Shown here piece by piece: positions 4,215 to 25,608 of a stretch of 64,000 nucleotides of DNA. The stretch is from a virus. A program made the position numbers and the translations under genes. Each line of letters begins with the position of its first letter. Position 1 is the first letter of the stretch. Where the stretch lies: IMG/VR virus record IMGVR_UViG_3300043773_000921, positions 24,549 through 88,548 of that record; one strand, written 5' to 3'. The notes beneath the pieces were generated by a model that saw only the letters and a program-made list of their open reading frames with translations, searched no databases and was not told where the DNA came from.

Positions 4215-4676
4215 TCACTTTAGTAAAATAGCTGTAGTAATAATCCCTGCTGCAAATCCTCCGATAATACCCCAGGTTGTCCCTATAAAGATACCTCTTT
4301 TTCGCTCATTTTTAGCATATTTAAGGCCCTGCTGCCAAAGATTATTTAACTCAGTTATTTTATCAGAACTCATATTGTACGCACGTTGGTAAGTACCTAC
4401 TCGTTCCTCTAAAGTTCGCTCTATACTCTTATGTTCTGCTATCTGGAAATCAAAAGATCTGATAGTATTTTCATTTTTATCAATGATACTCTTGTAGTCA
4501 CCAATAGTTTTTTCCTTAGACTTGATAATTCCAATCACATCATTCCACTTCTTAGTAGATATAAGCACCGTATCTTTTCTTGTCATATAGGATATGCTAA
4601 TATCGCCATAAACATGAACTGTATCAAACTGACTAAATGCCAGTATCGGAAGCAGTAAAAACAATATTACTTTCAT
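4215..4676 (-). CDS. Exported/membrane coiled-coil protein (possible spanin-like lysis accessory)
   Basis: Signal peptide MKVILFLLLPILAFS|Q, central coiled coil, C-terminal hydrophobic helix. Confidence 0.5.
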   Translation of the reverse strand: MKVILFLLLPILAFSQFDTVHVYGDISISYMTRKDTVLISTKKWNDVIGIIKSKEKTIGDYKSIIDKNENTIRSFDFQIAEHKSIERTLEERVGTYQRAYNMSSDKITELNNLWQQGLKYAKNERKRGIFIGTTWGIIGGFAAGIITTAILLK

Positions 4677-5509
4677 ATCCGGACATCCTGTATTTTGTTT
4701 TCAAACTCTTTGATGTTCCAGGCTCTTGCCAATCTAGTCATTCCGATGCCACCACCAAAACGATCAAAGAACTTATGCTGCAAAAACTTATCTAGTTCAG
4801 CAACAACTCTTTTCTCGGTAAACAACTCAAACAATTTCTCGGCATACTTGCCACCTTCAATCGTATAAAAGTTCTCACGCATCTTCTCTGGATCACTGCT
4901 TCTCTGTGCCGAGCCAATAGTTTCCTGCCCATACATGATGACATCACACTTAGCATAAATATCAGCATACTTGCAGTACATGTTCCAGAAAGGATTAGTA
5001 CGTAATGGGAAGTTTTTCAAGAATACTACATCACCCTGCTCATCTCTCAACCTTGACTCATGCTCATTCTCGATAATCTCAGTACCATAGGCAACACAAA
5101 TATCGTTATAGTCAACATCAACACCAGTGCTAAACCCTAAATGCTGCAACAAATCCTTTTCAAGCTCTAGCATCACATTCATATCCCCCTTACTCTCAAA
5201 CTCAAACATAGGAAATATCAACTCATGCCGGCCAGGTATCGGATTCTTCTCCTGCCTGTAACTAGTACTAATACAATACACCCCATCCCAGTCAGGATTA
5301 TTAAGCAACTCATGCTCAAGCCACATCTGTCCAGTCTGTGGTAAAGGCCAGACATCTCTATTATAATCAAACACAGCAATACTATGCGGATTCTCACATG
5401 CCGCAAGTATCGATAACCTTGATTGAGTAGGAACTTCCTTGAACCCTCTGCCCCTAAAAAAAGCCCGCATCTTAGTTACGAGCAAATCATAAACCTTAGT
5501 TTCGTACAT
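4673..5509 (-). CDS. Class II aaRS (Asp/Asn/Lys) catalytic-domain-only paralog (AsnRS-like / asparagine-synthetase-like)
   Basis: Motif 1 FFRGRGFKEVPT; LPQTGQMWLE; motif 2 YRQEKNPIPGRHELIFPMFEFE; motif 3 GGGIGMTRL; 278 aa with no anticodon-binding OB domain. Confidence 0.85.
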   Translation of the reverse strand: MYETKVYDLLVTKMRAFFRGRGFKEVPTQSRLSILAACENPHSIAVFDYNRDVWPLPQTGQMWLEHELLNNPDWDGVYCISTSYRQEKNPIPGRHELIFPMFEFESKGDMNVMLELEKDLLQHLGFSTGVDVDYNDICVAYGTEIIENEHESRLRDEQGDVVFLKNFPLRTNPFWNMYCKYADIYAKCDVIMYGQETIGSAQRSSDPEKMRENFYTIEGGKYAEKLFELFTEKRVVAELDKFLQHKFFDRFGGGIGMTRLARAWNIKEFENKIQDVRI

Positions 5510-5540
5510 AATACATTTATTTAAAAGTGAACAATAAATA

Positions 5541-5873
5541 CTACCATCTTAACAAGTCATCTTTCAAATCCTCTATCTCCTTAATGTCATCTAAAATAAC
5601 ATCATGTAAACTATCAATCTGCTTCTGGTTCATCTTACGAATCTCTGTCAGTTCCTCTATCTTCCGATAACTACTCTCAATACTCTTAACCAACATGCTA
5701 TCCCTCATCCTAACCTCAGTATTTAACACAAGCAAATCAGTGTTAATCTTGTCGATTTTATCCTGTAACTGATCATTCCTTACAATGCTATATCTAGTAA
5801 AGGCTATCTGCAACATCATAAAAAATAAACTAACAGCAGTAATGCCGCCATAAACAAGCATAGACCTATTCAT
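5541..5873 (-). CDS. Membrane-anchored coiled-coil protein (i-spanin-like topology)
   Basis: N-terminal TM helix followed by heptad-rich helix; ATG at 5873 preferred as start. Confidence 0.5.
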   Translation of the reverse strand: MNRSMLVYGGITAVSLFFMMLQIAFTRYSIVRNDQLQDKIDKINTDLLVLNTEVRMRDSMLVKSIESSYRKIEELTEIRKMNQKQIDSLHDVILDDIKEIEDLKDDLLRW

Positions 5874-6168
5874 TACAAGCCCCTCCCCTCTGACTACCAA
5901 CAATCACTTCCTCATAAGACACCCCCGGCTCATTATAAACATAATGATTACTGACATTCTCAACAACAGACTTACAATAAAGCAAGTAATCTACAACCAA
6001 TGCAGCAAACTTCTCATAGCGACCATCAGCACTACTACTCAACTCCCTCCAGCCATCATAACTCCTGCCCATACAATGAGCATCCTCCCAACCAATCCAC
6101 CACATACGCTCCTCATGGTCATCAACATTAACACCCCGCCATTCTAAATATTCCAATATAGACATCAT
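5866..6168 (-). CDS. Hypothetical protein
   Basis: 100 aa ORF packed between neighbours on the same strand. Confidence 0.55.
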   Translation of the reverse strand: MMSILEYLEWRGVNVDDHEERMWWIGWEDAHCMGRSYDGWRELSSSADGRYEKFAALVVDYLLYCKSVVENVSNHYVYNEPGVSYEEVIVGSQRGGACNE

Positions 6169-6172
6169 AATC

Positions 6173-6679
6173 CTACTTCTTTAACTTGTTAACAATCAAT
6201 TCTACCAACTCTGCCTTACTTAACCTACCATCGCCATCATCACCCAACAACTCCAGCAACTCAGCCTTCTTCATCTTACTATAATCAGGCTCTTTCAACA
6301 CACCAATACTCTCACTCGGAGCAGCACCAGCCTCATCCGCCTCAACAACCTCATCCCCAATAACCGGTGCAACATACTTATACCCCCCTATCTTCGGTAC
6401 AACAAACAACTTAATATCAATACTATCATCATACCTCAAACTCATAGACTGACTAGTATGACTAACAACAAAATCATACACACTCTCACTAGGAATACCA
6501 GGGCCATCAACAACCATCTTCCCATTAACCTCATAACAGTTCCACCCATCTACACCCAACAATCTTCCAACCTCCTCAACTACCCCCGGTACCCGACAAT
6601 CTTTAGTCGTAACCAAAGTACCCAACTTTACATGACCACCAGCAGCAGTCTTTACATAATAATTTATCCTTGTCTGCAT
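6173..6679 (-). CDS. Protein with C-terminal Rho-N/HeH-like nucleic-acid-binding motif
   Basis: DYSKMKKAELLELL...RLSKAELVELI at C-terminus. Confidence 0.6.
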   Translation of the reverse strand: MQTRINYYVKTAAGGHVKLGTLVTTKDCRVPGVVEEVGRLLGVDGWNCYEVNGKMVVDGPGIPSESVYDFVVSHTSQSMSLRYDDSIDIKLFVVPKIGGYKYVAPVIGDEVVEADEAGAAPSESIGVLKEPDYSKMKKAELLELLGDDGDGRLSKAELVELIVNKLKK

Positions 6680-6715
6680 AATAATATAGTTTTAATAGTG
6701 AACGAATAATGGCAC

Positions 6716-6744
6716 AATATACACAGATAGTACGTTTTATGCAA
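6716..6744 (-). promoter_or_regulatory. Putative host-type promoter for the leftward operon
   Basis: Minus strand TTGCAT-N17-TATATT(GTGC), 37 nt upstream of the 6679 ATG. Confidence 0.5.
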
Positions 6745-6839
6745 GTTTTTGGTAGGGGAAAAAGAAAAAAGACGGGAGGGCACTTAATGTATCGTACCCC
6801 CGCGTTAAATCATTATCTAACTTTTTAATTTCATGTATT

Positions 6840-7217
6840 ATGAGCAAAGTTTCATTGGGAAAAGTAAGTGAAATCATTGAAAGAGGTGAGAAAAACTCTC
6901 CACTTTTCATGAAAGAAGGAGAACATCTTGTTAAATTGTTGGGAAAAGGCACTTGGGGGCAGAAAGCTTCGCAGTGTATCTTGACTGATAAGGGTACCAT
7001 TGGTGCCTATCAGTTGATAGACCAAATGAGAAAGGATGGTATCCTGGAAGATTTCCTGGACGAAGCAGAGTTTGTGTTTGAAACTGGTGAAGAGTTATTC
7101 GTCACCATAAATGCAAAAGCTGTAGTAGAAACTCGACTTCCTGACGAAGAAGAAGAGGAGGAAGAAGACGAAGAAGAAGTCGTCGTCGTCAAGAAGAAAA
7201 CTTCTACAAAGAAGTAA
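6840..7217 (+). CDS. First rightward gene; small protein with poly-acidic then basic tail
   Basis: DEEEEEEEDEEE-VVVV-KKKTSTKK tail; followed by its own terminator. Confidence 0.7.
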   Translation: MSKVSLGKVSEIIERGEKNSPLFMKEGEHLVKLLGKGTWGQKASQCILTDKGTIGAYQLIDQMRKDGILEDFLDEAEFVFETGEELFVTINAKAVVETRLPDEEEEEEEDEEEVVVVKKKTSTKK

Positions 7218-7224
7218 GAAAGAT

Positions 7225-7253
7225 CCCTGCGCCTTCGGGCGTGGGGTTTTTTT
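7225..7253 (+). terminator. Strong Rho-independent terminator
   Basis: CCCTGCGCC-TTCG-GGCGTGGGG followed by T7; cUUCGg tetraloop. Confidence 0.9.
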
Positions 7254-7339
7254 CAGATGTGCCTACTACTGTTAGTAAGAGGCACAACTATTAGATAATG
7301 ATTTACATATAGCGTTGACTGTCAGACTGTTAGTGCTAT

Positions 7340-7355
7340 TGTTCCACGTGGAACA
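7340..7355. promoter_or_regulatory. parS: parS centromere-like site
   Basis: Perfect 16-bp palindrome TGTTCCACGTGGAACA matching the bacterial chromosomal parS consensus; intergenic. Confidence 0.85.
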
Positions 7356-7512
7356 TGATAGAGGAAAGGTGTGAGTGGCTACCATCTGCTGCGCATTACT
7401 CTACTCTACATCACATCGCACAACTCTATTAGTGTTATACATACTGATACTGTGAGTGATTGCGTGGGTTTTATTATAGGTGAGATTATTAACAATCAAA
7501 TATATTATTATT

Positions 7513-7806
7513 ATGGAGAGTACATTCAGTGTATATCAAGTCAGGACATATAACTATAATAGCAGAGAGCATAGCTTAGATCTTTCTTACAGCACATTAG
7601 ACAAAGCCAAAGAAAGATTATTTGAATACTGTGAGAGTAAAAATACTCACACGGAAACTGTTGACCTGGAAGGTAGGTGTGAAACATATCCTCATAATGA
7701 GGATGTTGATAACTGGATAAGTAGAGGAAAAGCGTCAATATATTATTTTTCTAAATATGGAAACTACAAATGTGTAGTTTACGTACAGGAAATATTTGTG
7801 TATTGA
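7513..7806 (+). CDS. Hypothetical early protein
   Basis: ATG after A/T-rich leader; short YSTLDKAKERL helix. Confidence 0.6.
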   Translation: MESTFSVYQVRTYNYNSREHSLDLSYSTLDKAKERLFEYCESKNTHTETVDLEGRCETYPHNEDVDNWISRGKASIYYFSKYGNYKCVVYVQEIFVY

Positions 7807-7813
7807 TTTCATT

Positions 7814-7850
7814 GCGGGCATGCTATTGTAGTGTGCCTGCTTATTATATT
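7814..7850 (+). terminator. Hairpin / probable terminator
   Basis: GCGGGCATGCTA-TTG-TAGTGTGCCTGC followed by T-rich run. Confidence 0.55.
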
Positions 7851-7910
7851 TATTTACTGCCTCCGATATAATGTTGTAGGCATTTCTTTAACACTTAAAA
7901 AACTTTACTA

Positions 7911-8159
7911 ATGAAAAACTTGTCAAAAAAACATTTGCTTCGCTGGCTTATGGATCAGCAGCACAAGTTCACTCAAGGCAATAACCTCGAGGAGACAGAA
8001 CTTATTGTAGGATACTTTAACGGTGTATTGAGTGCAGAGTTTATATGCCGTAATGGCTATGGCTCTGTATGGAGTACTAACAGATATTTGTCTGTTAAGT
8101 GTCCGAAATGTTTTACTCATTTGTTTGCGGACAATAGTCCAATAACATTTGATTTATAA
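7911..8159 (+). CDS. Hypothetical early protein
   Basis: 82 aa, A-rich leader, CPKC motif. Confidence 0.55.
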   Translation: MKNLSKKHLLRWLMDQQHKFTQGNNLEETELIVGYFNGVLSAEFICRNGYGSVWSTNRYLSVKCPKCFTHLFADNSPITFDL

Positions 8160-8501
8160 GATTTACAACCTGAGTTTACAGGTGCGAGGATAGTATGTAC
8201 TATCCGTTATTAACAATTATTTATAACCATTAAATGTAATCCCGTAAGATTACAACTACTATGAGCTTTTAAGCAAAAGTAAAGTGCCTTTTAGTACGTT
8301 GAGTTCCTTAAGTCCTAGGCAAGGTCTATTCGATATTGAATAGTAGGGTAAGACTCAACCAGGTATTCTCATTATCTGCCACAAAACAAGTTCCTAATCC
8401 TATAAGAGAAATGGATGGGAACATTTTAAAACAAATATTATTATAAAACAAGTATGCGTGTAGAGCTCGAGCACGTGTAAGGATGACAAGAGTATATAGT
8501 T

Positions 8502-8741
8502 ATGTGGGTAACACAAAATCAAATGGATGATACTACATTGAACAAAATGTTTAGTCGTTGGAATCAAGCATTAGCTAATGGAGAGATAACTGACATTGAT
8601 AATACTACAGAAATGTGGTATGGTGAGTTAGTTATGACACACGAAGATGGTATAGATTATATAACAGCACCTATACAGAAATATGATAAAGAAGGGTATA
8701 TAGATTTTGTTGTTAATGTTTCAATACCATTTGAAATATGA
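8502..8741 (+). CDS. Hypothetical acidic early protein
   Basis: 79 aa ORF with ATGA overlap to the next gene. Confidence 0.55.
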   Translation: MWVTQNQMDDTTLNKMFSRWNQALANGEITDIDNTTEMWYGELVMTHEDGIDYITAPIQKYDKEGYIDFVVNVSIPFEI

Positions 8742-8884
8742 AGCAGTTTATTTCTAACAACTGGGGGATGCTTATGACATTAGTGTTATCAGTGTTCCTC
8801 TATTATTACTGGACTCAACTGCCTACATTAGTAGGTTTTGTACTTGGGTTCTTCGCATGCATTGGTCCGGCATGCAAGAACTAG
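8738..8884 (+). CDS. Small two-TM membrane protein (48 aa, not in the ORF track)
   Basis: MKQFISNNWGMLMTLVLSVFLYYYWTQLPTLVGFVLGFFACIGPACKN*; ATGA-coupled to the upstream stop and fills the gap to the next gene. Confidence 0.6.
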   Translation: MKQFISNNWGMLMTLVLSVFLYYYWTQLPTLVGFVLGFFACIGPACKN

Positions 8885-9423
8885 ACGATATAATAAAGAA
8901 ATGCTCTACATTATTCTTGGCTAGTGATGTGGAGCTATCTTTGTTGTTATTGCAATCGATTATTGATAGTAGCGATAGAAAGATACTGTATGAGTATGCT
9001 GTTACATCATACTTAAGTTTCATAGCTGATGAGTTGGTATCTCATGCAATTAAATGTAGTGAGATAACATCTGATGATGAGTATAGTCTTGAATATTTTA
9101 ATGGTGATATCAAACATTTTGTTTATGATTGTATTCACTACGATATTAAAGATGACTATGACTACTCTACAGATTTTGAAAGTGGAAGTAGAATAATAAT
9201 ACATGAGCGTATGTCAGTTGTACTTACCATCTGGTTTAACTCATCTTACAGATTATTATTTTCACTTGATATAGTAAGAAGCTATGACAAATATAGGTCT
9301 GATTTGAACTTACATCAATGTTGTTATGAGATCCAAGATGGAGATATAACGACATCAGTTACTGGCGATACGTTTATTCAAAACATTCTTTTATTTTTAA
9401 AACAAAGTTATGTTAGACATTAG
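8857..9423 (+). CDS. Hypothetical early protein
   Basis: 188 aa acidic ORF; true start may be 8872. Confidence 0.6.
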   Translation: MHWSGMQELDDIIKKCSTLFLASDVELSLLLLQSIIDSSDRKILYEYAVTSYLSFIADELVSHAIKCSEITSDDEYSLEYFNGDIKHFVYDCIHYDIKDDYDYSTDFESGSRIIIHERMSVVLTIWFNSSYRLLFSLDIVRSYDKYRSDLNLHQCCYEIQDGDITTSVTGDTFIQNILLFLKQSYVRH

Positions 9424-10027
9424 TATGATTGTTGAACTTATGTTTTCTTATGATGACAACAAAAAAGGATATGCTGAGATGCTGGCAAAAGAGCAGTTTG
9501 GTTATGAAGAAGGCACCAACAAAGGTGATTTTAATTATGACTTAACTAAATCATTTGCTATCAAGATCATGGAGCATATGTTTGATTTATACAGCAAAGA
9601 AATACTTGTATCTTTTTATTCACTTGAAGAGTTATATAGAGATAACAGAGAGAGTGTTTTTAACTGCCCAGGTTTTCTATGCACAGCTAAACCAATAGAA
9701 AGAGGTTACACTAAATCTTTTGATGGTAGCACTGAAAAGATTGACATTAAGTTTAAAGTAAGCAAGTTTGTTAATGTATCACATTTACTTGTTGATAACA
9801 TATATGAACATATGTTTAGCTTTAACTTAGTTGTTAAGAAACACACATTGTCTAATTTTATTTGTTGTGAAGCTTCTATTCCAAATCATTGGAGTGATGT
9901 TCACAACGATGAGTTGACATACAGTATAGATGACTTAAGCTACTCTAGAGGTACATATATGATGACCTTTAAAAACAAGTACGACGTAATGGAAAAATTA
10001 TTTAAGCACTTTTTAATAAATAAATAA
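9410..10027 (+). CDS. Hypothetical early protein
   Basis: 205 aa ORF overlapping the previous gene. Confidence 0.6.
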   Translation: MLDISMIVELMFSYDDNKKGYAEMLAKEQFGYEEGTNKGDFNYDLTKSFAIKIMEHMFDLYSKEILVSFYSLEELYRDNRESVFNCPGFLCTAKPIERGYTKSFDGSTEKIDIKFKVSKFVNVSHLLVDNIYEHMFSFNLVVKKHTLSNFICCEASIPNHWSDVHNDELTYSIDDLSYSRGTYMMTFKNKYDVMEKLFKHFLINK

Positions 10028-10225
10028 ATGAAAACAGAACTATTAGTAAAAATATTCATGACTATTATGGGTATGTTCTTTGGCTATATATCATTCGTTT
10101 TTGCCACAAAATTACATGAAACTACTATCTATGTAAACTTTATAACAAAAGTATTAGTGTTTGTTGGTTTACTTATCATGATGACATTGTGTTTTTGTGT
10201 TTCTCATCTTTATAAAGAAGATTAA
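10028..10225 (+). CDS. Small two-TM membrane protein
   Basis: 65 aa with two hydrophobic helices. Confidence 0.6.
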   Translation: MKTELLVKIFMTIMGMFFGYISFVFATKLHETTIYVNFITKVLVFVGLLIMMTLCFCVSHLYKED

Positions 10226-10227
10226 CT

Positions 10228-10569
10228 ATGAGAGCAATATTTATTGATAGTAATGACAGAAATGTCTATGAAGCTAGAATTAAAGGCAATGACTTTCGTG
10301 AGATTTGCAGTCTTATAGGCTGTAATATTATAACTGGAGGCTATAGCTTTGAAAATGGCGACTACATGTATGTTGATGATGAAGCAATTTTTACAACAAA
10401 TAGAAATGGTTTTATCATTAGTGTACCAGGTAATAGCTGGGGTGCACAACAGCTGATTGGCAATGCTCTTATCATCGGCAGTAGTAAAGACGATGATGGC
10501 AGTGATGCTGATGCAGTGAGTAGTATTGAAGAGATTAAAAATCTTATTTCATTTAAAACATTTATCTAA
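10228..10569 (+). CDS. DUF3846-like protein
   Basis: SLIGCNII...MYVDDEA...LIGNALIIG pattern. Confidence 0.6.
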   Translation: MRAIFIDSNDRNVYEARIKGNDFREICSLIGCNIITGGYSFENGDYMYVDDEAIFTTNRNGFIISVPGNSWGAQQLIGNALIIGSSKDDDGSDADAVSSIEEIKNLISFKTFI

Positions 10570-10570
10570 C

Positions 10571-10972
10571 ATGAAAAAGTTATTAGTTTTATTATTCGTA
10601 ACGTCTTTTGCATTTGGTCAAGCAGAGGATCCGGAACAGTTTGACCAACAGATAAGATATAGCAGTCTTGCTGATTTGTGTGACTGCACATCTTATGCTG
10701 AGGCATTGTCTACGTTGTATGATGTAAGGCCTAGCGATGTATTAAATGATATGAAAAACTATGTCAATGATTACATCATTACATTTCAGCTAGCTGGTTA
10801 TTCTTACGAACCAGATGAAGATGTATTAAATAAAAAAGTATACTTTAACAAGTCAGGTTATGTTATACCATACGATTGCGTGTTAAACATAATCAATGGT
10901 AACAAAACTGATGTAAAGATAATGCGTGATGATGAGTACCAGCGTGTACACCATTACGATATTAAGGATTAG
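10571..10972 (+). CDS. Secreted protein
   Basis: Signal peptide MKKLLVLLFVTSFAFG|Q; ATG at 10571. Confidence 0.65.
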   Translation: MKKLLVLLFVTSFAFGQAEDPEQFDQQIRYSSLADLCDCTSYAEALSTLYDVRPSDVLNDMKNYVNDYIITFQLAGYSYEPDEDVLNKKVYFNKSGYVIPYDCVLNIINGNKTDVKIMRDDEYQRVHHYDIKD

Positions 10973-10994
10973 ACTAGTGTTTTATTAAGTGTTG

Positions 10995-11020
10995 GGGCAG
11001 CTGTGGTGGCTGCCCTTTTT
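10995..11020 (+). terminator. Rho-independent terminator
   Basis: GGGCAGCT...GGCTGCCC followed by T5. Confidence 0.7.
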
Positions 11021-11044
11021 ATTTCATCATTAAAATTCTTCATC

Positions 11045-11644
11045 GTGAACGATATTAAAGAAACAATCGATAAGTTCTCAGCTCAGCTTATCGAGGCTAA
11101 AGAAACCTTCGAAGGTGAGCTGGCTACTAAAGAAGAGAAGCAAGTTATTGTTGATGCATGCTCTGCTATCGTTCGTAAGTTTGCCGGCTTGCAAGCAAAG
11201 CATAGGAACTTTTTCCATTACAAATGGGACTATGAGTACCAAGGAAGACAGTTTGGCTTTAGCTATCTATCTCATTATATTTCTGCACTGTTCGTTGAAC
11301 TAGCACGTAAGAGATATGAACCCATCAGTAAAAAGAATATGAGCGCTGTGATGACTATAGCACATAGTTATAAGCGTAATGGTAAAGAGCTTAGTGCTGC
11401 TATGACCAAAGCATATACTGTTGTAGATAGAACAGGTTCGTTGAAAACAGAAAGCATCCAGGAAGAATGCAATGTTATAAGTAACAGTTGTATATTAGGC
11501 CTCTGGAATACAAAGATGCCATCATATCCTTCATTAAACAAAGGATTAAATGGATTAGATGACAACGCTAGACCCAAAGCTAAAGCTGTTATGCTTGTAG
11601 CTGATATATTGGGACCTCTATGCGCAATGATTGGTTACAGATAA
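11045..11644 (+). CDS. Hypothetical protein
   Basis: GTG start downstream of the terminator preferred over 11003; helical 199 aa. Confidence 0.6.
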   Translation: MNDIKETIDKFSAQLIEAKETFEGELATKEEKQVIVDACSAIVRKFAGLQAKHRNFFHYKWDYEYQGRQFGFSYLSHYISALFVELARKRYEPISKKNMSAVMTIAHSYKRNGKELSAAMTKAYTVVDRTGSLKTESIQEECNVISNSCILGLWNTKMPSYPSLNKGLNGLDDNARPKAKAVMLVADILGPLCAMIGYR

Positions 11645-12392: not shown

Positions 12393-12734
12393 ATGGAAAA
12401 GTTTAAAGCATCGGAATTATCTGAAAGAAACTACAGAGAGGGCGATCGAGTCTTTTTGTCCTTTGAAATTAAAAGCCTTAAGATGAGTACAGATGATGAA
12501 CTCTGGCTACATTCAAGTGATAACAATAACAATGTCTGGCTTAAACAGGATGCTGTTGTTTATGGTGTGCCATACAGATATCGTGATGGTGACATCGTTA
12601 ATTACAATGGTAGACTTAGTAAAATTGTTAGCGGATTTAACGATGACTGGCATGTTTTGACTTCAGATGGAACTATGTTTGATTTGAATCCAGCATTAAT
12701 TAACACAGTAATCACAGAAAACAACGTACTGTAA
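12393..12734 (+). CDS. Hypothetical protein (possible tandem SH3/KOW-like beta domains)
   Basis: YREGDRVF and YRDGDIVN repeated motifs. Confidence 0.55.
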   Translation: MEKFKASELSERNYREGDRVFLSFEIKSLKMSTDDELWLHSSDNNNNVWLKQDAVVYGVPYRYRDGDIVNYNGRLSKIVSGFNDDWHVLTSDGTMFDLNPALINTVITENNVL

Positions 12735-13216
12735 TGGCAAAGAATCTTTTTAATATCAACGAAGAAATGTTCCGATTGCATCAGCAGATCGAAGAAAATG
12801 GTGGTGATTTAACACCAGAACTTGAAGAACAACTAACAATAACTGAACATGACAGAGAAAGTAAATGTGAGGGATATGTTAGCGTCATTAGACAGCTTAA
12901 GTCAAAGTCTGAGCTCCTTAAAAGCGAAGCAAAACGACTTCTTGATGCAGCTAGAACATATGACAAGTCAGTTGAACGACTTGAAGATAACTTACTATCA
13001 TCTATTGTTCAGCTTGGAAACATTAAGACAAACTTCGTCAGCATCTCAACAAGAAGAAACAAATCCGTAGAGATTGCAGATGATGTTGAAATACCGCTGC
13101 AGTACCAACGTGTAAAAATCGAAGCAAACAAAACTGCTATTAAAGAGGCCATAGAATCAGGCATTGATGTCCCTGGCGCTACAATAGTAGAGAAGTTTTC
13201 ATTACTAATCAGATAA
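12734..13216 (+). CDS. Siphovirus Gp157 family (Mu Gam-like) protein
   Basis: ENGGDLTPELEEQL; long coiled coil; KTAIKEAIESGIDVPGATIVEKFSLLIR C-terminus. Confidence 0.85.
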   Translation: MAKNLFNINEEMFRLHQQIEENGGDLTPELEEQLTITEHDRESKCEGYVSVIRQLKSKSELLKSEAKRLLDAARTYDKSVERLEDNLLSSIVQLGNIKTNFVSISTRRNKSVEIADDVEIPLQYQRVKIEANKTAIKEAIESGIDVPGATIVEKFSLLIR

Positions 13217-13218
13217 CA

Positions 13219-14052
13219 ATGAAAAAGCAAGAACAGAAAAGAATAGCTGAAGTCCTTGCATCGTTTATGGGTGATACCGAGCGCGGTGATCACTTCTCTA
13301 TCAGTCAGAATCTTATTGGGTTTCAGACTGACAACGCTGCAAGACTATTAGAAACTTACATCAGCCTACAACCGGAAGAGATGCTTACTTGGGAAAACTC
13401 TCTTGCTGGTGTAGACCCAATATATTACTCACAGTCAGAGCATACAGCACATACAGCTAGACATCTATTAGAAACAGATGATGCAGAAAATGTATTAAGT
13501 GTTTCGGGCCAGGAGCAGCAACTGAAAGAGATGAACTTCTTACCTACGTTTGAGCTTATCGCTCGTATGGGTAACACATCAGGCAAATGCTTTCGTATGG
13601 CTATGCAACTAGAGAACTACTACGAAAAAGTAGCAACCAAGCCAGTAACACTTGGTGTGCTAAAGCTAGCAGTAAACTTGTTGTACAAGATGTCTGAGCA
13701 AACACAGAATAACATTCAGCTTATTCGTAATAGGTTGATGTATACCATGGATATGCAACTGAACTTCGAAGGCAAAAAGCTTGAACTATTGAAGTCTAAG
13801 AAAGCACACTTAGTGCCAAACATAGATAACTTCTTTAAGCTTCGTGAGCATAAGCAGATACGTTATTTCGACCCGCTTAACTGGTACTTCGAAATATACA
13901 AAGATACGCTGAAAGACATACCTCATAAGCTTTACCAAGATGTCAAGCATCACAAGGAAGCGCAACAGGCTATTACAACTTATAGCAGTATCATAGAACA
14001 TATCAAGTCGGCACACAATGTCGTTACGGGAGTTACTAAAACTCCTTTCTGA
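13219..14052 (+). CDS. Hypothetical protein
   Basis: 277 aa ORF in operon. Confidence 0.65.
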   Translation: MKKQEQKRIAEVLASFMGDTERGDHFSISQNLIGFQTDNAARLLETYISLQPEEMLTWENSLAGVDPIYYSQSEHTAHTARHLLETDDAENVLSVSGQEQQLKEMNFLPTFELIARMGNTSGKCFRMAMQLENYYEKVATKPVTLGVLKLAVNLLYKMSEQTQNNIQLIRNRLMYTMDMQLNFEGKKLELLKSKKAHLVPNIDNFFKLREHKQIRYFDPLNWYFEIYKDTLKDIPHKLYQDVKHHKEAQQAITTYSSIIEHIKSAHNVVTGVTKTPF

Positions 14053-14746
14053 GAAAAACGTCATTCCATTAGACGCAGCAGAGCGGAACTCTTTGCTGCG
14101 TTCTTTTGGTTTTGATTGCATAAGAACATTTCAACAGCTTGATAATCTTATTGCTATGTTATTCTTAGAAAAGGTATATCTTATCGCTCCTTGGACTATT
14201 AAGGTAAGGTATGCAGATCCAGTATTCAAAGTAGCACTATGTGATATCTATTTCGAACCAATAGAAACTGTTGTTCCTATGTGGTTATGTATTGACAGTA
14301 TCATAGAAGCAGGCAAGGCACCGTTGTTTAGCGTTGACAATAAAGAAATACAGGACATGGCTTTTATCACACCACAGCAGGAGTCTGACATACTTAGCTG
14401 TATGTTTTATCCAGCTGTCAAAGATGAAGAAGGTGAGTTGTATTATCCTGAGTTGTCATTTCATATTCAGTATGTACTTGATGTGATATATGGCATCAGA
14501 GGCTATGATAGTCCTAAAGGCCTGATATATGTAGCTACTGATCTAAAACTAGCAGACAAATGGCGGTTAGCTATCTGTGCTGAAGGCAAGCGTAAAATGA
14601 AAAAGCTTGTCGGTACACAGCGCTACACTATGTTTGTTGCCGGTATAGATAACTTGAATACAGTAAGAAAGGAAACTTCACCAGTGTTTGCTGAAGAACG
14701 CGAGAAGAGTTCCAATTCCTTAACAGCTTTAATGGCAAAGTTATGA
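14018..14746 (+). CDS. Hypothetical protein
   Basis: 242 aa ORF in operon. Confidence 0.65.
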   Translation: MSLRELLKLLSEKNVIPLDAAERNSLLRSFGFDCIRTFQQLDNLIAMLFLEKVYLIAPWTIKVRYADPVFKVALCDIYFEPIETVVPMWLCIDSIIEAGKAPLFSVDNKEIQDMAFITPQQESDILSCMFYPAVKDEEGELYYPELSFHIQYVLDVIYGIRGYDSPKGLIYVATDLKLADKWRLAICAEGKRKMKKLVGTQRYTMFVAGIDNLNTVRKETSPVFAEEREKSSNSLTALMAKL

Positions 14747-15603
14747 AAACATTCAATGTGTCTTTATTTATGCTAGTAGTTACTATTGTAGCTTACTGCA
14801 TAGTAGAAAGACCAAGAGAAAAAGCAATAGATTACAAGACTAGCGTATCTGAAAGAAGTCATTCCAGTGGAAAAATGATTAGCAGAGAACCTGTCGAACA
14901 TAAACACATACATGCTGGGGCCGATGAGTTATATCCTGATGTTGGATATGATGAAGATGGCTGGTCTAAACGTGGTTATATGTCAACTAGTGAATTTCAA
15001 GGCAGTCATTTAAAAGGTGATCAAGAAAAGCTAGCAAAGCTAAAAACTAGAATAGGCAAAGAAAGACAAGCATTTGTAGATGACATATCTAAGAATGCTA
15101 AAGATTTGTCTGCTAAGTTTAATATTCCTGCTAGTATCATTGCTGCACAGGCTATTCTTGAATCAGGTTACGGCACTAGTAGACTAGCTGTTGTTGCTAA
15201 TAATCTATTTGGTCACATGGGAGGCAAAACTAAAGACTCTCGCGGAATAACAGGTAGCATTAAAGCATACGATAAAAACATCAATGGACATACTATTAGT
15301 TATGGATTTAGGATATATGAATCCAAATGGTGGTCCATGTGGAATCACGTACAGCTGCTGAATAAGACTTATGCACCAAGACTAATAAACATTCCAAACA
15401 AAAGAGAAGCCTGGCTTGCTGCTATTTGTGGATGTAGTGACAGTCGTATGCTTGCATCGGACTCCAAAAGACTTGCTGATAAAGGTGGTTATCTTTATGC
15501 AAGTGCTTGTGCTTGGCCGGCAAGCGATGGCGTTACTAGCAGATATGTAGCTGAGTTGAGGCATATTATTAACTCTTACAATCTATCAAAACTTGATGAA
15601 TAG
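14743..15603 (+). CDS. GH73/FlgJ-type glucosaminidase with N-terminal membrane anchor
   Basis: IPASIIAAQAILESGYGTSRLAVVANNLFG, FRIYES, C-terminal YNLSKLD; hydrophobic N-terminus. Confidence 0.85.
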   Translation: MKTFNVSLFMLVVTIVAYCIVERPREKAIDYKTSVSERSHSSGKMISREPVEHKHIHAGADELYPDVGYDEDGWSKRGYMSTSEFQGSHLKGDQEKLAKLKTRIGKERQAFVDDISKNAKDLSAKFNIPASIIAAQAILESGYGTSRLAVVANNLFGHMGGKTKDSRGITGSIKAYDKNINGHTISYGFRIYESKWWSMWNHVQLLNKTYAPRLINIPNKREAWLAAICGCSDSRMLASDSKRLADKGGYLYASACAWPASDGVTSRYVAELRHIINSYNLSKLDE

Positions 15604-16468
15604 TATTGTTTATAGCGCAAGTAATTGTACAAAAGGGCATGTATCACTAAAAAGATATAATGCCCTTTACTTTTTTTCAATTATTGTAGATGAAAAAGCA
15701 GAGCATAAAACAGAAGATGTTGTTATGTCTATCTGCCAAAAGTTTGATGTAAAGTTTGATAATAATTATGGTACTGTAGAAAATAATCTGTACAATTATT
15801 TTATCAAAAACAAACTTGTTACCTGTCAAAAAGACCTATACTGGACATCAGAAATAGAGGGCATTGTTGATATTTACTATCAGTACATCGGACTAAAATA
15901 CATACCGGAAGCCAAAGATTGTGAATACCATTACAAATATGATGAGTATGCCTATCTTGTTATCAATGAGAATACTATTGAGTTTTCTGATTGGTATCAG
16001 GATAAAATAGAAACATTTGTTGATGACATTGAAACGCTATTCAACATAAAACCTACTAAAGATTATAGAAAGCCAGGCGAAATAGTTCGTTTGTTTGCGC
16101 TTGCTTGGTCTAGGTTTGAGAAAGGCGATAAATGGGCAACTAAAGATATTATGATCAATGCAGCATTACGTATAAACGGAGCTACAAATAGCACTGGCAA
16201 AGAACGTGATGATGCACAGTACAATGGATTTTTATTTATCATTAAGAAATGGTTTTTGTATCTTTGGGAATGTAAAGATAGTAATACTCCTGACGAGTAT
16301 ATCTTGTCGTTAAAAGGTTTTATTCAGAAGAATCTAGAATCTTGGATAAATGACAAAGAAAATATCTTAATTACTAATAAGATATACACTCCTGAACATG
16401 CCGAAATAAAGAAAATGTTTGTTAACGAACCAATAAGTTTCTATAAAGCACTATGGGACTTGATATGA
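15596..16468 (+). CDS. Hypothetical protein
   Basis: 290 aa ORF in operon. Confidence 0.65.
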   Translation: MNSIVYSASNCTKGHVSLKRYNALYFFSIIVDEKAEHKTEDVVMSICQKFDVKFDNNYGTVENNLYNYFIKNKLVTCQKDLYWTSEIEGIVDIYYQYIGLKYIPEAKDCEYHYKYDEYAYLVINENTIEFSDWYQDKIETFVDDIETLFNIKPTKDYRKPGEIVRLFALAWSRFEKGDKWATKDIMINAALRINGATNSTGKERDDAQYNGFLFIIKKWFLYLWECKDSNTPDEYILSLKGFIQKNLESWINDKENILITNKIYTPEHAEIKKMFVNEPISFYKALWDLI

Positions 16469-16809
16469 TACGCCGTAGACTGGCAAGGTCTAATCATGCT
16501 GAGATGCCGGCACGCGAGTACGGAAAGTATTTGTATGCCAAGCACAAAGATAAGTTTGAAAGACTTTTCCTAAACTACGATATGCTTGTGCCTGACAAAG
16601 ACATGGAAAATATATGTAGCGTTATGCTGCATGATATCTTTAAGTCTGTATCTCATTGCATCAGGAACAATGTTGAAGTGTCATTTACCGCAATGAAGAA
16701 TTCTAAAATTAAATATTTCACAATTAGTTACGCAAGAAGATATGGCGAAGACAGAAATATTGAAACAATCATCAGAAGAAGAAAAGACACCAGAGATACA
16801 ACTGATTGA
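16453..16809 (+). CDS. Basic protein, weak HU/IHF-like resemblance
   Basis: DIFKSVSHCIRNNVEVSF segment loosely like HU helix 2/beta 1; Arg-rich C-terminus. Confidence 0.35.
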   Translation: MGLDMIRRRLARSNHAEMPAREYGKYLYAKHKDKFERLFLNYDMLVPDKDMENICSVMLHDIFKSVSHCIRNNVEVSFTAMKNSKIKYFTISYARRYGEDRNIETIIRRRKDTRDTTD

Positions 16810-17554
16810 GGCAGTCCTCAATGTAATGTCTGAGGTAAACTATCTTCAGAAAGATGATACTGTTGGCACTGGCTCTGGTTCTTACAAGGGCATCTCAGAT
16901 GAAAAAGTAAGAAATGAGATAAGAAAATCAATGATAACGCATGGTCTTATCTGTGTCCCTATTAAAATAGAAAAGGAGACCAAGCACGAGCGTTGGCAAG
17001 AACTAGATCCATATTCTAAAACTGGTGCTGTAAAGCAGAAGCAACAAATATTCTCTGATATTGTGTTTACTTTTAGGCTTTATCACACATCAGGTGCACA
17101 CATTGAGGGCCAATCATCGGGCCATGGCATTGACTCGCAGGATAAATCACCGGGTAAGGCAATGACATATGCTATGAAGTATTTCTTGTTAAATATCTTT
17201 ATGGTGCCAACTGGCGAAGACACCGACAAGATTCATAGCATGGACATTGAAACGCCAAAGATATCACCAAAGACTGAGGTAGTTACATTGCCTAAGCCTA
17301 CAGTTGATGTTCCAGAGCGCATTAACCCACAATATCCAACTGAAGAAGCTATACAAACTATGCTTTATGGAGGCGATGGTGTAATAATAGCTACTCATAT
17401 GGACGGTATACTTGCTAACTGGAAAAAGAATGGTGCTACACTTCTGTATGGCAAGTACATTTATACTTACACACAAGGTAAATTCAATTATTTTGTTGTA
17501 GATGACATCAGAAGAGAGCATATTGTAAAGCAAGCCAAGTATAAGCATGGGTAG
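16742..17554 (+). CDS. erf: ERF-family single-strand annealing protein
   Basis: GHGIDSQDKSPGKAMTYAMKYFLLNIFMVPTGEDTD signature. Confidence 0.9.
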   Translation: MAKTEILKQSSEEEKTPEIQLIEAVLNVMSEVNYLQKDDTVGTGSGSYKGISDEKVRNEIRKSMITHGLICVPIKIEKETKHERWQELDPYSKTGAVKQKQQIFSDIVFTFRLYHTSGAHIEGQSSGHGIDSQDKSPGKAMTYAMKYFLLNIFMVPTGEDTDKIHSMDIETPKISPKTEVVTLPKPTVDVPERINPQYPTEEAIQTMLYGGDGVIIATHMDGILANWKKNGATLLYGKYIYTYTQGKFNYFVVDDIRREHIVKQAKYKHG

Positions 17555-18455
17555 AAAGCCTGCTGAAAAGCCGAAGGTAGTAAAAGAGCCAAAGCCTAAG
17601 ATAGTAAAAGATTCTATGCTTAGGAGCTTCACAAAGCAATACAGACATAAGTTTATTGGAGGACATTTGTACATCGAATGTCCTCTTGTTTGTAGCTCTT
17701 ACATACTTGCATGTAACTGGGTGCCAAAAGATGAGTTTATAGCGGAAACAAATATAGAACTCAATAAGATTGGCAGAACAATTACCATGGCCTGTGTATT
17801 CTCTAAAGCTGATATGTGCTACTATGTTGTGTCACACCTTTGGCTTGCACAGATGTACACCTGGTGTAACTACGACATGAAGTTGTATCTCGAGAAGATA
17901 TTTACTACAATGCTAAAGAATGCATATCGTAAAGATATTGTAGAAACAACAGTAATAGTACCTCAGACTTATGTTGAGAAGCAGAAAGATGTTGAAGAAG
18001 ATAAAGATTTGAAGAATAAAAGATCTAAACTGCTTGATAGAATACATACTGAGGTCGAAGAAGATTCATTTTACAGAGAGTACGGACTAACCATAAAGAC
18101 CTACCGTGCTATGTGCGAAGACAGTAAAACTATTGTTGAGAACTTTGAAAAAGACACCCATGTGCTAGATTTTCATAAGTTCTTGTTCAATAAGTACAAA
18201 GTATTGCTGCGAGATACAATGAAAGTATTGGTAGAGCATGGCATCATTATACAAGATATGAATGATGCAAACTACAAGAACAACTACTTTCTTGCTAAAG
18301 AGTTTGTAGCCTATGGCTTTGGCGTCAATATACATGATGCAGACAAAAACACAACCTACCCATCATTTACAAGAAGAGGACTATTTACAGTGCTTCTTTT
18401 ATTACACGATGCTGGCGTATTATCTAAACAAGTTATTCCAAATTTAATATTTTAA
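17547..18455 (+). CDS. DNA-binding protein with degenerate C-terminal antirepressor (KilA-C/ANT-like) domain
   Basis: LVEHGII...NNYF...EFVAYGFG...TTYPSFTRRGLFTVLLLL resembles the ANT C-terminus. Confidence 0.4.
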   Translation: MGRKPAEKPKVVKEPKPKIVKDSMLRSFTKQYRHKFIGGHLYIECPLVCSSYILACNWVPKDEFIAETNIELNKIGRTITMACVFSKADMCYYVVSHLWLAQMYTWCNYDMKLYLEKIFTTMLKNAYRKDIVETTVIVPQTYVEKQKDVEEDKDLKNKRSKLLDRIHTEVEEDSFYREYGLTIKTYRAMCEDSKTIVENFEKDTHVLDFHKFLFNKYKVLLRDTMKVLVEHGIIIQDMNDANYKNNYFLAKEFVAYGFGVNIHDADKNTTYPSFTRRGLFTVLLLLHDAGVLSKQVIPNLIF

Positions 18456-18457
18456 TC

Positions 18458-18859
18458 ATGAAAACACAGAAGTATCTCCCTGGCACACAGTTGTCGGGTA
18501 AAATTCTTGACACTAAAGTAGAAGATTTCTCAACTGAAAGAGGCCCGGGAGTAAAGTTTGTTATCCTCATCAAAGATGTCTGGAAAGACAAGGAAGGTAA
18601 CAAGCAGGAAAGTGAGCCATATTATGCTAACTGCATTGCCTATGGTGAAAAGCTTGTAAGACAAGTGAAAGACATCGTAATGCAAAAGCAGATGGCTGTT
18701 GTTCGCGTATTGCCAAAGCTTGAGAAGTGGACTGACAATAATACTAAGCTTGAAAAGTCTACTGTTCGCTACAAAGCAACATGGGTTGAAGGTTGGTATT
18801 TTGAATCAGGTTCTTGGATTTGCTCACAAGAAGAACCTGTTGGCGACCTACCGTTCTAA
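18458..18859 (+). CDS. ssb: Single-stranded DNA-binding protein
   Basis: WKDKEGNKQE, CIAYG, KWTD OB-fold motifs; C-terminal DLPF. Confidence 0.85.
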   Translation: MKTQKYLPGTQLSGKILDTKVEDFSTERGPGVKFVILIKDVWKDKEGNKQESEPYYANCIAYGEKLVRQVKDIVMQKQMAVVRVLPKLEKWTDNNTKLEKSTVRYKATWVEGWYFESGSWICSQEEPVGDLPF

Positions 18860-18874
18860 ATATTATTTCACTAT

Positions 18875-18909
18875 GCCTGCACAAGGAAACTGTGTGCAGG
18901 CTACTTTTT
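18875..18909 (+). terminator. Hairpin / terminator
   Basis: GCCTGCACA-N9-TGTGCAGGC followed by TACTTTTT. Confidence 0.65.
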
Positions 18910-18920
18910 AAACTATTTGT

Positions 18921-20960
18921 ATGGCTTCTAATATTAAAATTAAAAACGAAATGTTAAAAGTAACTCCAGATTTGCTTGACTTTTCTATACCTAACCCTAG
19001 GTTTGCTGGCATAGATTATGACGTAAACGATGCTACTCCATATGGTGATGCTATTGATAAAATGTATGGTTCGATGGTTGAGACCTATAAAAAGACAGGT
19101 TCTTTATTGCTGCAGCCAATCATATGCGAGCAAGTAAAAGGTAAGTATGTTGTTCGTGCCGGCTACACTAGAGCAATGACTTTTGTTACTCGTTATGAAG
19201 ATTTGTGTAAGGAGATTGGCGCTACTGCAGAAATACCAGTTTATATCATGGATGGCATTAACATTGTCGATTCATTGACTGAGAATGTATTGCGTAGTGA
19301 GCAACACTTTATTACATTGGCCCATGCAATCAGACAGGCTGTTGCTGTTAAAGGCGTGACACTACCAAAGATTGCTAGTCAGCTTGGCATTTCTGTAAAT
19401 AGAGCAACATCACTTCGCAAGATAGCTGCACTGAACAAAGAAGCTATCAAGCTTTGCTTTGAAGGTGTTATCGATGAGTCTGGTGCCACTGCATTGTGCG
19501 ATATGCCTGATGCTATACAGAAGATGATTATTGACGAGATTTATGATCGTGATTTGCACACAGAAGGAGAAGCACTTGATGACAGAGAAATAGTGAGATT
19601 GTCTAACTATTGCATGCCGGAAATATCTGAAAGTGTTCCAGAAGAAAGCTTTGTTGATTTGTATGGTAATGTGCATCCAAATATCAAAGAAGAAAAATGG
19701 TACATCAACGTAGGTAATATGTTTGATAGGCCTAGAACATCTGATAGCGATGCAACAAAAGCTAGAGCAAGAGCATACTGGGAAAAGTTTATCGAAGAAA
19801 ACAAACTCAAAGTTGTTGACAGATATGACATCATGGGCTATATATCATGCGATATGGGTACTCATCCTGAAGAAGTTGCCTGCTGGGATTATGATGGCAA
19901 CATCAGGTTCTTTGTTAAGCCATCTTTGATTGAAAGCGTTAAAGCAGAAGAAAGCTATGTTGAGAAAAAGCAAGATGCTGCTATTGAGCGTGTCAATCGT
20001 AAGATTACTAGCTTAAAAGAACAAGCAAGAAAAGATGTTGTATTCAGATTGATGAAACAATTAAATCAAGATGGAGCATCACTAGATTATGCTGTACTTG
20101 CTTTCTTTAAAGGTATGCATATCAACAATGCTTTAAGGACTTGTATCGAGCATTTACTTGGTGACAGCATTAGTAATGGCGCAGACCTTGTTGATAAAGC
20201 TGGTGCATCTTATGCAATGACTGTGTTTCTTCAGGCCAATCTGATGACTATGGCATCTTATACTCCTAATGTTCTTAGTATGTTCTTTAAAGACAATAAC
20301 ATTGATTTGGAGAAAGAATACGAGAATGAATACAGTTCTATAGAGCTTAAGCGTGCAGATATGACTGAGAAAGCAACAGAAAGATCTGAAGAGATTGATG
20401 ATGATGCTAAAGCAAGACGCAAGTTTGTTGTAGATATGTGCTACACTAATGTCTATGAAACAGGCAAGAGTGTCTACAATTCTATCGATGAAGCTGATGA
20501 AGCATTGCTTACTTACATCTGCAAGAACATTGGTATTCCATACAAGGGTAGTGAGTTTATCATGAGAATGCGTGTTAAGAATCTAGTAAATCAGATACTA
20601 AACACTATTGACGATGATGCTGATGCTGAAAGTATGCTTGCTGGACTTAAAATGCTAGATACTTGTAAGTCTAGATCTATTAGAATGTTTAACGACGCTA
20701 CAAAAGAAGAAACTCTTAACGGTACAGACTTAAACACTGAACTAAAAGAACTTGCTTCAATCCTGCATGAATATGACTTTGTCAGTGCAAATGCAATGTT
20801 GCAGACATTTGATATCAAAGGCATCATAAAGTCTAGTGATACAGAGCAGAGAAGAAAAGCAATGTTTGTTTCGTTCTTTACGAAAGTGAAAGAATGCTTT
20901 AACTTCAAAACAGCATTTGCTTACAAAAACGATAAGAATAAATACCAAGTTATTAGCTAA
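18921..20960 (+). CDS. parB: ParB/Spo0J-family protein with long C-terminal extension
   Basis: NPR; LLQPII...YVVRAGYTR; ENVLR; HTH TLPKIASQLGISVNRA; GVIDESGATALCDMP. Confidence 0.85.
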   Translation: MASNIKIKNEMLKVTPDLLDFSIPNPRFAGIDYDVNDATPYGDAIDKMYGSMVETYKKTGSLLLQPIICEQVKGKYVVRAGYTRAMTFVTRYEDLCKEIGATAEIPVYIMDGINIVDSLTENVLRSEQHFITLAHAIRQAVAVKGVTLPKIASQLGISVNRATSLRKIAALNKEAIKLCFEGVIDESGATALCDMPDAIQKMIIDEIYDRDLHTEGEALDDREIVRLSNYCMPEISESVPEESFVDLYGNVHPNIKEEKWYINVGNMFDRPRTSDSDATKARARAYWEKFIEENKLKVVDRYDIMGYISCDMGTHPEEVACWDYDGNIRFFVKPSLIESVKAEESYVEKKQDAAIERVNRKITSLKEQARKDVVFRLMKQLNQDGASLDYAVLAFFKGMHINNALRTCIEHLLGDSISNGADLVDKAGASYAMTVFLQANLMTMASYTPNVLSMFFKDNNIDLEKEYENEYSSIELKRADMTEKATERSEEIDDDAKARRKFVVDMCYTNVYETGKSVYNSIDEADEALLTYICKNIGIPYKGSEFIMRMRVKNLVNQILNTIDDDADAESMLAGLKMLDTCKSRSIRMFNDATKEETLNGTDLNTELKELASILHEYDFVSANAMLQTFDIKGIIKSSDTEQRRKAMFVSFFTKVKECFNFKTAFAYKNDKNKYQVIS

Positions 20961-22182: not shown

Positions 22183-22262
22183 TCACCTACAATGAATAAA
22201 ACAGCAAAAAGATTATTAATATTTGCTCTAATGATATTTTATATATTAGTCTTTTTGTATTG

Positions 22263-22270
22263 TATATTTG
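22263..22270 (+). promoter_or_regulatory. Putative Bacteroidetes -7 promoter element (TAnnTTTG)
   Basis: TATATTTG in an AT-rich intergenic gap 4 nt before ATG 22275. Confidence 0.45.
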
Positions 22271-22274
22271 TAGG

Positions 22275-22550
22275 ATGAACTTACGTCAATATAGAGATAA
22301 ATGTTATAAAATAGCTAAAGCCACAGGGGTTTATCTGAAAGTCAAAGGGCATGGCACAGGTAAACCCAAATGTGGCAGATTACTTAGAGCTTATGAAATA
22401 AATGACAACGAATGTCTGCTTGATATGTTTTTTGATAAAGGCTATGAAATGTATGATCTCAAAGATGTTATCTGTTGGGTAAAAAATGGTAAGGAATATC
22501 CCTGGCCAGTATTCAAGCCTGAATCAAAAGACTTGTTTTCAGATGTTTAA
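22275..22550 (+). CDS. Hypothetical protein
   Basis: ATG at 22275 preferred over TTG 22260. Confidence 0.6.
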   Translation: MNLRQYRDKCYKIAKATGVYLKVKGHGTGKPKCGRLLRAYEINDNECLLDMFFDKGYEMYDLKDVICWVKNGKEYPWPVFKPESKDLFSDV

Positions 22551-22561
22551 CACAATGTTTA

Positions 22562-24825: not shown

Positions 24826-24836
24826 AACTATTAGTT

Positions 24837-25061: not shown

Positions 25062-25068
25062 CGATACT

Positions 25069-25605: not shown

Positions 25606-25608
25606 AAT

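Follow-up and report, generated by a model that had tools for sequence, protein, structure and literature searches.

The Bacillus phages phi29 and Nf, as described in PMC2731898, carry host-type parS sites on their own DNA that are read by the host Spo0J/ParB for spore entrapment, and phi29 has five such sites used through host Spo0J. Other phages, namely P1 (ParAB-parS), N15 (Sop) and mycobacteriophages with a parABS system (PMC7157519), are described as carrying a ParA and a ParB of their own together with a private parS. In this study, we analyzed a 64,000-nucleotide stretch (the window) of an IMG/VR virus record, IMGVR_UViG_3300043773_000921, which measures 88,548 bp and of which the window covers bases 24549-88548. 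The window contains the 16-bp palindrome TGTTCCACGTGGAACA. Table 1 of PMC7022226 lists this sequence as parS of the Pseudomonas putida chromosome and, essentially, also for P. aeruginosa. We lean towards the prediction that this 16-mer is a working docking site for ParB, read at least by the ParB of the host cell.

The locus resembles phi29 in that a virulent-looking tailed phage without an integrase carries the parS of the host chromosome on its own DNA, with host ParB as the presumed reader. Unlike phi29, which has five sites, no ParB gene and a use in sporulation, the phage studied here has a single site lying in a conserved non-coding block of the early region, and it also has a gene for a divergent ParB/Noc-like protein. 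Bacteroidota are not known to sporulate, and the likely hosts of this phage, which belong to that phylum, are not expected to do so. A centromere on phage DNA is also the feature shared with P1, N15 and the mycobacteriophages; unlike those systems, as they are described, the present one has no ParA and shows the chromosomal consensus site. With the chromosomal ParABS centromeres, the identity extends over all 16 bp (PMC7022226), but the site here lies on a phage, without ParA, unclustered and with no known link to an origin. A single parS can reportedly suffice in P. aeruginosa (PMC4368675). The combination of a ParB-family protein with a palindrome overlapping a promoter-like site also recalls KorB-OB of the IncP plasmid RK2 and other ParA-independent regulators of the ParB family. 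However, KorB has many operators of its own sequence, whereas a single host-type site is present here and the match between the phage protein and KorB is not significant. Of the genes expected in a self-contained ParABS system, one for a ParB-family protein was found and one for ParA was not. A search of the literature, covering main texts, returned nothing on parS in crAss-like phages and host-type parS in phages only for phi29.

A host-type parS site and its occurrence in bacteria and viruses

The site itself is listed first.

7340-7355, no strand assigned: chromosomal-type parS palindrome TGTTCCACGTGGAACA, exact, single copy in the record

The initial annotation of the window, made from its letters alone, had described an exact 16-bp palindrome at this position, intergenic, about 600 bp from a strand switch, present once and of the chromosomal bacterial type. 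Each of these points holds. TGTTCCACGTGGAACA fits the 16-bp parS consensus TGTTNCACGTGNAACA as its exact GG/CC variant, the string is the Pseudomonas parS of PMC7022226, and the papers that contain it in a literature text search all concern ParABS. No second copy was found at ≤2 mismatches in the whole 88,548-bp record, and the sole further match in the window at ≤3 mismatches, at 60035, has three. It is also the only perfect 16-bp palindrome of the record, where base composition predicts 2.6 palindromes of any sequence but only 9e-6 exact copies of TGTTCCACGTGGAACA; of three perfect 14-bp palindromes, the two besides parS consist of A and T only. The site lies between two open reading frames (ORFs), 123 nt to the right of the stop codon of ORF 6840-7217 (at 7217), about 90 nt beyond the terminator of that ORF, and 157 nt to the left of the ATG at 7513. 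The strand switch falls between 6679, the start of the last leftward gene, and 6840, which places parS 500-660 bp away. The minimum of the cumulative GC skew falls in the 6001-8000 bin, although this minimum follows gene orientation and is not by itself the mark of an origin.

The TerL of the phage matches only gut Crassvirales, the Azobacteroides phage ProJPt-Bp1 and the Flavobacterium phage FpV4, at 24-30% identity, and the PHROGs assigned are phrog_6681 for TerL, phrog_6547 for the portal and phrog_11589 for the capsid, the latter two carrying no annotation beyond portal protein and major head protein. By these similarities, the phage is crAss-like and distant from the gut crAss phages. Only two of the 45 ORFs of ≥150 aa have a Shine-Dalgarno-like motif in front of them, a rate equal to that at random positions, and A makes up 45% of the upstream sequence; few Shine-Dalgarno motifs and A-rich upstream regions fit Bacteroidota. 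On the grounds of the TerL kin, the portal and capsid PHROGs and the Shine-Dalgarno rate, the Bacteroidetes host proposed in the initial annotation is plausible. The sequencing runs in which DNA of this phage was found are lake or freshwater metagenomes. Since a close relative, G306, has 87,877 bp with direct terminal repeats and is probably complete, the genome of the present phage is put at about 88 kb and its record is taken as near complete. At each end of the record, a minus-strand ORF is left incomplete (L202 1-1638 and window 60918-63998); the two may be parts of a single gene of about 1,570 aa, interrupted where a circularly permuted genome was opened.

The same sequence is in use on bacterial chromosomes. 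A scan of species genomes found exact parS in at least 120 of them from many phyla, and the matches listed include the Bacteroidota members Bacteroidales, Flavobacterium soli, Chitinophaga and a metagenome-assembled genome (MAG) of Daejeonella. In each of four Bacteroidota genomes checked, parS sites are clustered, a stretch of about 4 kb holding 2-5 sites that are exact or differ at one base. When 301 genomes were sampled from the phylum of Flavobacterium soli, 23 had the exact variant and none had a control with the letters reversed. One canonical ParB each was identified in three of the four genomes (E ~1e-32), and none at E ≤ 1e-8 in the fourth, whose assembly is incomplete. Judged from these genome comparisons, the presumed host phylum uses this parS sequence. 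The Daejeonella MAG (L235 / G002) carries exact parS beside a one-mismatch site on contig C167 (56739-56808) and encodes a canonical ParB; its name contains the IMG sample id 3300044732, the same as that of L122, a relative of the phage. By co-occurrence only, this lineage is a candidate host.

Among relatives of the phage, the exact 16-mer was found at the syntenic position in all five contigs that cover the locus, four from IMG/VR (L122, L123, L124 and L325) and one from a JGI metagenome (L346). In sliding identity, L123 behaves like L122 and L346 like L124, which leaves about three lineages besides the window. Three close-relative records searched whole, including G306, hold exactly one site each. 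An alignment of the DUF3846 protein recovers the same four contigs and one unrelated phage, and a 22-mer of the conserved block is confined in IMG/VR to these four. The 125-aa product of ORF 6840-7217 found no relative in IMG/VR, and blastn of window 5500-9500 found no match among cultured phages.

Exact parS is not restricted to this lineage. It occurs in at least 120 IMG/VR contigs, whereas the control, the letters of TGTTCCACGTGGAACA read backwards and therefore likewise palindromic and of the same composition, occurs in three (L338-L340). This is an excess of at least 40-fold, so that chance would account for no more than a few percent of the viral copies. DNA outside ORFs of ≥100 aa holds 53 of the 123 sites from 120 loci (L002-L121), compared with 465 of 2400 positions drawn at random from these loci, and the flanks of the sites show a symmetric preference for A/A...T/T. 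The surprise voiced in the initial annotation at meeting parS in such a phage was therefore overstated, given this excess and the phi29 precedent reported in PMC2731898. A PF02195 ParB was detected in 2 of 50 site-bearing records searched whole and in none of the seven that are ≥90% complete, a share that may be too low because PF02195 also misses the ParB-like protein of the present phage. Host-type parS without a recognizable ParB thus looks widespread among viral contigs. The 120 parS-bearing loci include no kin of the present phage, and outside a stretch of 16-20 nt at the site, its conserved block resembles none of the other viral or bacterial parS loci. Another contig of crAss type, G356 (locus L049; 55.6 kb; record positions 9555-11492, 14961-14976 and 23236-23251), has a terminase of phrog_6681 (E = 4.6e-68) and carries exact parS together with a second site with two mismatches. 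Neither a PF02195 ParB nor a homolog of the present phage's ParB-like protein was found in its 55.6 kb.

A divergent ParB/Noc-like protein of the phage

A phage ParB had also been mentioned in the initial annotation, and a remote but consistent Noc/ParB match identifies its likely gene.

18921-20960, plus strand: divergent ParB/Noc-like protein P0001, 679 aa, recognized through remote profile matches

P0001 was not detected in the PF02195 search of the record, and Pfam at E ≤ 0.01 and PHROGs likewise gave nothing. Under relaxed Pfam settings, HTH_ParB was placed on residues 129-212 with E = 0.013, which misses the cut-off of that family. Ten homologs, with identities of 25-87% over a full-length alignment, were combined into a profile that matched four Noc structures in the PDB at E = 5e-6 to 1.4e-5 (7ng0 at 5.2e-6), the H. 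pylori ParB 4umk at E = 2.8e-4 over positions 63-220 and Spo0J 6sdk at E = 0.056; its matches to KorB (1r71 and 8qa8; E = 0.4-0.75) are not significant. Over residues ~63-220, the alignment covers ParB box II, the ENxxR motif and the helix-turn-helix, with GYTR in the place of GERR (LLQPI...AGYTRA aligned with LLQPV...AGERRL, and ENVxR with ENIQR). In the ESM Atlas, 24 of 30 matches to residues 1-240 belong to ParB_N/HTH_ParB clusters, with a top score of 0.95. Another ~450 residues beyond the ParB-like part have no assignment. ParB-like proteins of other contigs (P0010-P0014) show 34-59% identity. On this profile and fold-level similarity, P0001 is a very divergent member of the ParB/Noc family, and because the phage encodes such a protein, its parS is not strictly orphan. 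No ParA was found, as PF13614 and PF01656 gave no match in the 88.5-kb record at E ≤ 0.01 while the controls matched in 14 of 14 genomes, and no tyrosine integrase (PF00589) was found in the record.

The protein raises the alternative that the palindrome is the operator or centromere of P0001 itself. Site and protein would then form a ParA-less, KorB-like pair in which the clamp loads at the single site and represses or organizes the early region, with host ParB irrelevant or a competitor. We regard this as unlikely, though it accounts for several observations: the phage has a gene of the ParB family, parS and a promoter-like -10 overlap in the way usual for operators, and the genome offers no other 16-bp palindrome that could serve the protein. 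Gene and site also occur together in all three close-relative records searched whole and are both missing from the distant relative G305, a co-occurrence that is confounded by close kinship. The specificity positions speak the other way. ParBs specific for parS are reported to have an invariant arginine at position 173 and a small residue at position 201 (PMC7383237). In both HMMER alignments, Val159 of P0001 falls at the R173 position and Ser187 at the G201 position, with an identity to ParB of ~20% and an alignment register that is uncertain at such divergence. Ser187 is allowed, but Val159 speaks weakly against P0001 as a canonical parS reader. Moreover, G356 keeps exact parS without a P0001 homolog or PF02195 in its 55.6 kb. 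The present phage has the host consensus letter for letter, although a private pair would be free to depart from it.

The conserved non-coding block around the site

parS proved to be the left edge of a conserved block of ~125-265 bp, a feature that the initial annotation had missed. The block and the features around it are as follows.

7221-7485, plus strand: whole conserved intergenic block, from the terminator to the variable early genes (alignments A1/A2, sliding identity)
7337-7462, plus strand: core, starting 3 nt before parS and comprising parS and ~107 nt to its right
7225-7253, plus strand: intrinsic-terminator-like hairpin (stem 7225-7246) and T run ending the unit of ORF 6840-7217, conserved in A1/A2
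7315-7342, plus strand: sigma-70-like match TTGACT-16 nt-TATTGT with TG before the second hexamer, a consensus match only
6840-7217, plus strand: first rightward ORF, 125 aa, with an acidic tail and no family, diverged between lineages
7513-7806, plus strand: first ORF after the block, its sequence different and non-homologous in each of four lineages (mosaic boundary)
6806-6820, minus strand, and 7291-7305, plus strand: perfect inverted pair of 15 nt, TTAGATAATGATTTA, with no further exact copy in the record

Sliding identity over 7300-7449 gave 45-50 identical bases per 50-nt bin in every relative. Over the left ORF (6850-7099), the values were 33-37 of 50 in the L122/L123 and L124 rows and 40-50 of 50 in L325, with L346 having no sequence there. 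To the right of ~7500, homology ends and every lineage has DNA of its own. The same pattern is seen in a Logan contig of 22.7 kb (run X13), which matches 6032-6826 with 48 differences, continues with 514 unrelated letters, matches 7337-7462 with a single difference anywhere in that span and then passes again into unrelated letters. As far as these alignments can tell, the non-coding block is constrained more strongly than the adjoining genes. The arms of TTAGATAATGATTTA flank ORF 6840-7217, one lying in the divergent promoter region and the other within the conserved block. A hypervariable early cassette (7500-8850) begins right after the block, its first genes being non-homologous across four lineages.

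Such a block invites the explanation that the palindrome is an early promoter, a transcript start or an element of a replication origin read by something other than ParB, whether host RNA polymerase, a virion RNA polymerase acting through a hairpin or another repressor, and that its identity with parS is incidental. The conserved unit of 125-265 bp is far larger than parS, and its location at the start of the early arm, by the strand switch and the minimum of the cumulative GC skew, suits this explanation. A sigma-70-like match is also present, with a -10 that overlaps the first three bases of parS, so that the site would cover -10 to ~+8. However, six promoter-like sites in the region against 4.5 expected in shuffles is not significant, and the -35 part of the match lies outside the stretches matched at ≥80% by the X13 contig. 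According to a preprint on the crAss-like phage phi14:2 (10.1101/2020.03.07.982082), early transcripts of its virion polymerase lack a common upstream motif, middle promoters resemble -35/-10 elements and long early non-coding RNAs originate in intergenic regions. A role of the present block as promoter or leader is plausible in the light of these findings. Two other conserved intergenic islands of the early arm, which share GTG[CT][AG]AG with the core, likewise suit a promoter or origin element. Nevertheless, we consider it distinctly unlikely that parS identity is incidental, as an exact match of that kind is expected only 9e-6 times per record, the DNA hairpin is weak (-4.9 kcal/mol), and the genome has no other similar hairpin that could be a second promoter of the kind. 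A promoter or origin role would, in addition, be compatible with ParB binding.

Two more specific candidates were set aside. N4-style hairpin promoters serve virion RNA polymerase, and such a promoter was judged unlikely here on the strength of the same hairpin energy and the lack of a second similar palindrome. The virion RNA polymerase named in the initial annotation could itself not be confirmed by sequence: the 7,497-aa ORF gave no PDB match by phmmer (residues 3417-5583) and no PHROG. As for a structured RNA, Rfam on 6500-8600 returned nothing near the gathering score, and the fold of a 168-nt leader, with z = -0.54, was no better than that of shuffles, so that this candidate finds no support.

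The two islands mentioned above (8156-8205 and 8447-8497) are, like the core 7337-7462, intergenic and show 0-2 differences in the X13 contig, with the intervening DNA replaced. GTG[CT][AG]AG occurs in each of the three and four times in all on the plus strand of 6601-27000, three of these occurrences lying within the islands; the motif was defined after the sequences were seen and is a lead only. The three islands may be early promoters or recombination boundaries. Further along, the first 20 proteins of the early arm have almost no Pfam or PHROG families. The part of the arm at 12734-26885 encodes Gp157, ERF, SSB-like and RadC proteins and a radical-SAM protein resembling spore photoproduct lyase, while RusA is encoded on the left arm. 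DNA polymerase, primase and helicase families were not found among the 30 early-arm proteins scanned with Pfam. On the left of the strand switch, 4673-5509 (minus strand) encodes a 278-aa protein of phrog_29758, annotated as 'tRNA ligase' in the Prochlorococcus phages P-SSM2 and P-SSM7 (48-50% identity). This protein occurs in at least 598 IMG/VR stretches, mostly from unrelated phages, and was not detected in the close relative L325.

The least probable explanation, a neutral passenger in the form of a piece of host DNA or a chance palindrome, carried without effect on the phage in a block conserved for other reasons, would suit a single copy with a function that is only predicted, absent from G305 and from six named crAss-like or related genomes and shared by close relatives, but we think it very unlikely given that a perfect host ParB site in a cell containing ParB is expected to be bound regardless of 'intent', that the excess of at least 40-fold in IMG/VR and the excess outside ORFs argue for selection in viruses, and that a recent origin of the block from host DNA is contradicted by its lack of resemblance to other DNA outside the 16-mer.

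Predicted binding by host ParB and its possible meaning for crAss-like phages

We therefore return to the reading of the 16-mer as a docking site used at least by host ParB. Binding by host ParB is to be expected because the specificity of ParB for parS is described as conserved across bacteria (PMC7383237) and because the presumed host phylum uses the site. In the mechanism we propose, selection would maintain parS where the rightward early region of the phage begins, and host ParB, nucleating there, would load CTP-dependent clamps able to spread along the adjoining phage DNA. P0001, the ParA-less ParB/Noc-like protein, may also read parS or modulate the complex. The likeliest uses would be tethering or partitioning of phage DNA with the host chromosome in a non-lysogenic persistent state, damping of the adjacent early transcription unit, whose putative -10/+1 overlaps parS, or both. 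The initial annotation had suggested SMC recruitment, segregation or protection of phage DNA, or titration of host ParB, as possible uses. The purpose of the complex, be it persistence, positioning or early-gene control, is a matter on which we can only infer.

Several points weigh against this reading. It was reached by sequence comparison. Conservation among relatives, which the initial annotation had proposed as a check, was exact in the five close contigs covering the locus but did not extend to the distant relative G305 (TerL 44% identical; 82.8 kb; 99% complete by CheckV), where no site was found at ≤2 mismatches. TGTTNCACGTGNAACA is likewise missing, at ≤1 mismatch, from all six named genomes of crAss-like phages or their kin that were searched (five Suoliviridae and FpV4). 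The relatives that do bear the site are all close, with ParB-like proteins 90-94% identical, and a moderately diverged one (L347, from metagenome contig Ga0181349_1000146; ParB-like protein 49% identical, early arm syntenic) ends ~1.5 kb short of it. The constraint spans the whole block of ~125-265 bp and is not creditable to the palindrome alone; parS might lie by coincidence within a promoter, leader or origin element. There is a single site here, compared with five in phi29 and clusters in chromosomes, and half-sites are not enriched (GTTCCAC, 8 against 5.8 +/- 2.4; GTTTCAC, 6 against 10.6 +/- 3.1). Without a ParA of the phage, active partition would need that of the host, and the host is presumed only to the level of the phylum Bacteroidota.

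A bolder form of the proposal, which we put forward as a long shot, is that this clade of freshwater crAss-like phages has a minimal centromere made of one host-type parS and the phage's own ParA-less ParB/Noc-like clamp. The genome would ride on host ParA or SMC and be inherited as an episome without lysogeny, and the same complex on the first early promoter would act as a switch between dormancy and lytic growth.

CrAss-like phages are reported to persist for long periods in their hosts without lysogeny by a mechanism that is described as open (PMC8375218). A conserved host-type centromere together with a phage ParB-like protein provides a concrete hypothesis for this persistence that can be tested by mutation, and the minimal centromere, if true, would be its molecular basis. 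Borrowing of host ParB, so far documented only for phi29, may also be a widespread habit of phages, as at least 120 viral contigs carry the site against three for the control and a recognizable ParB was present in only 2 of 50 records. Finally, since a host would need a ParABS system, parS on viral contigs could help to predict the hosts of the phages that carry it.

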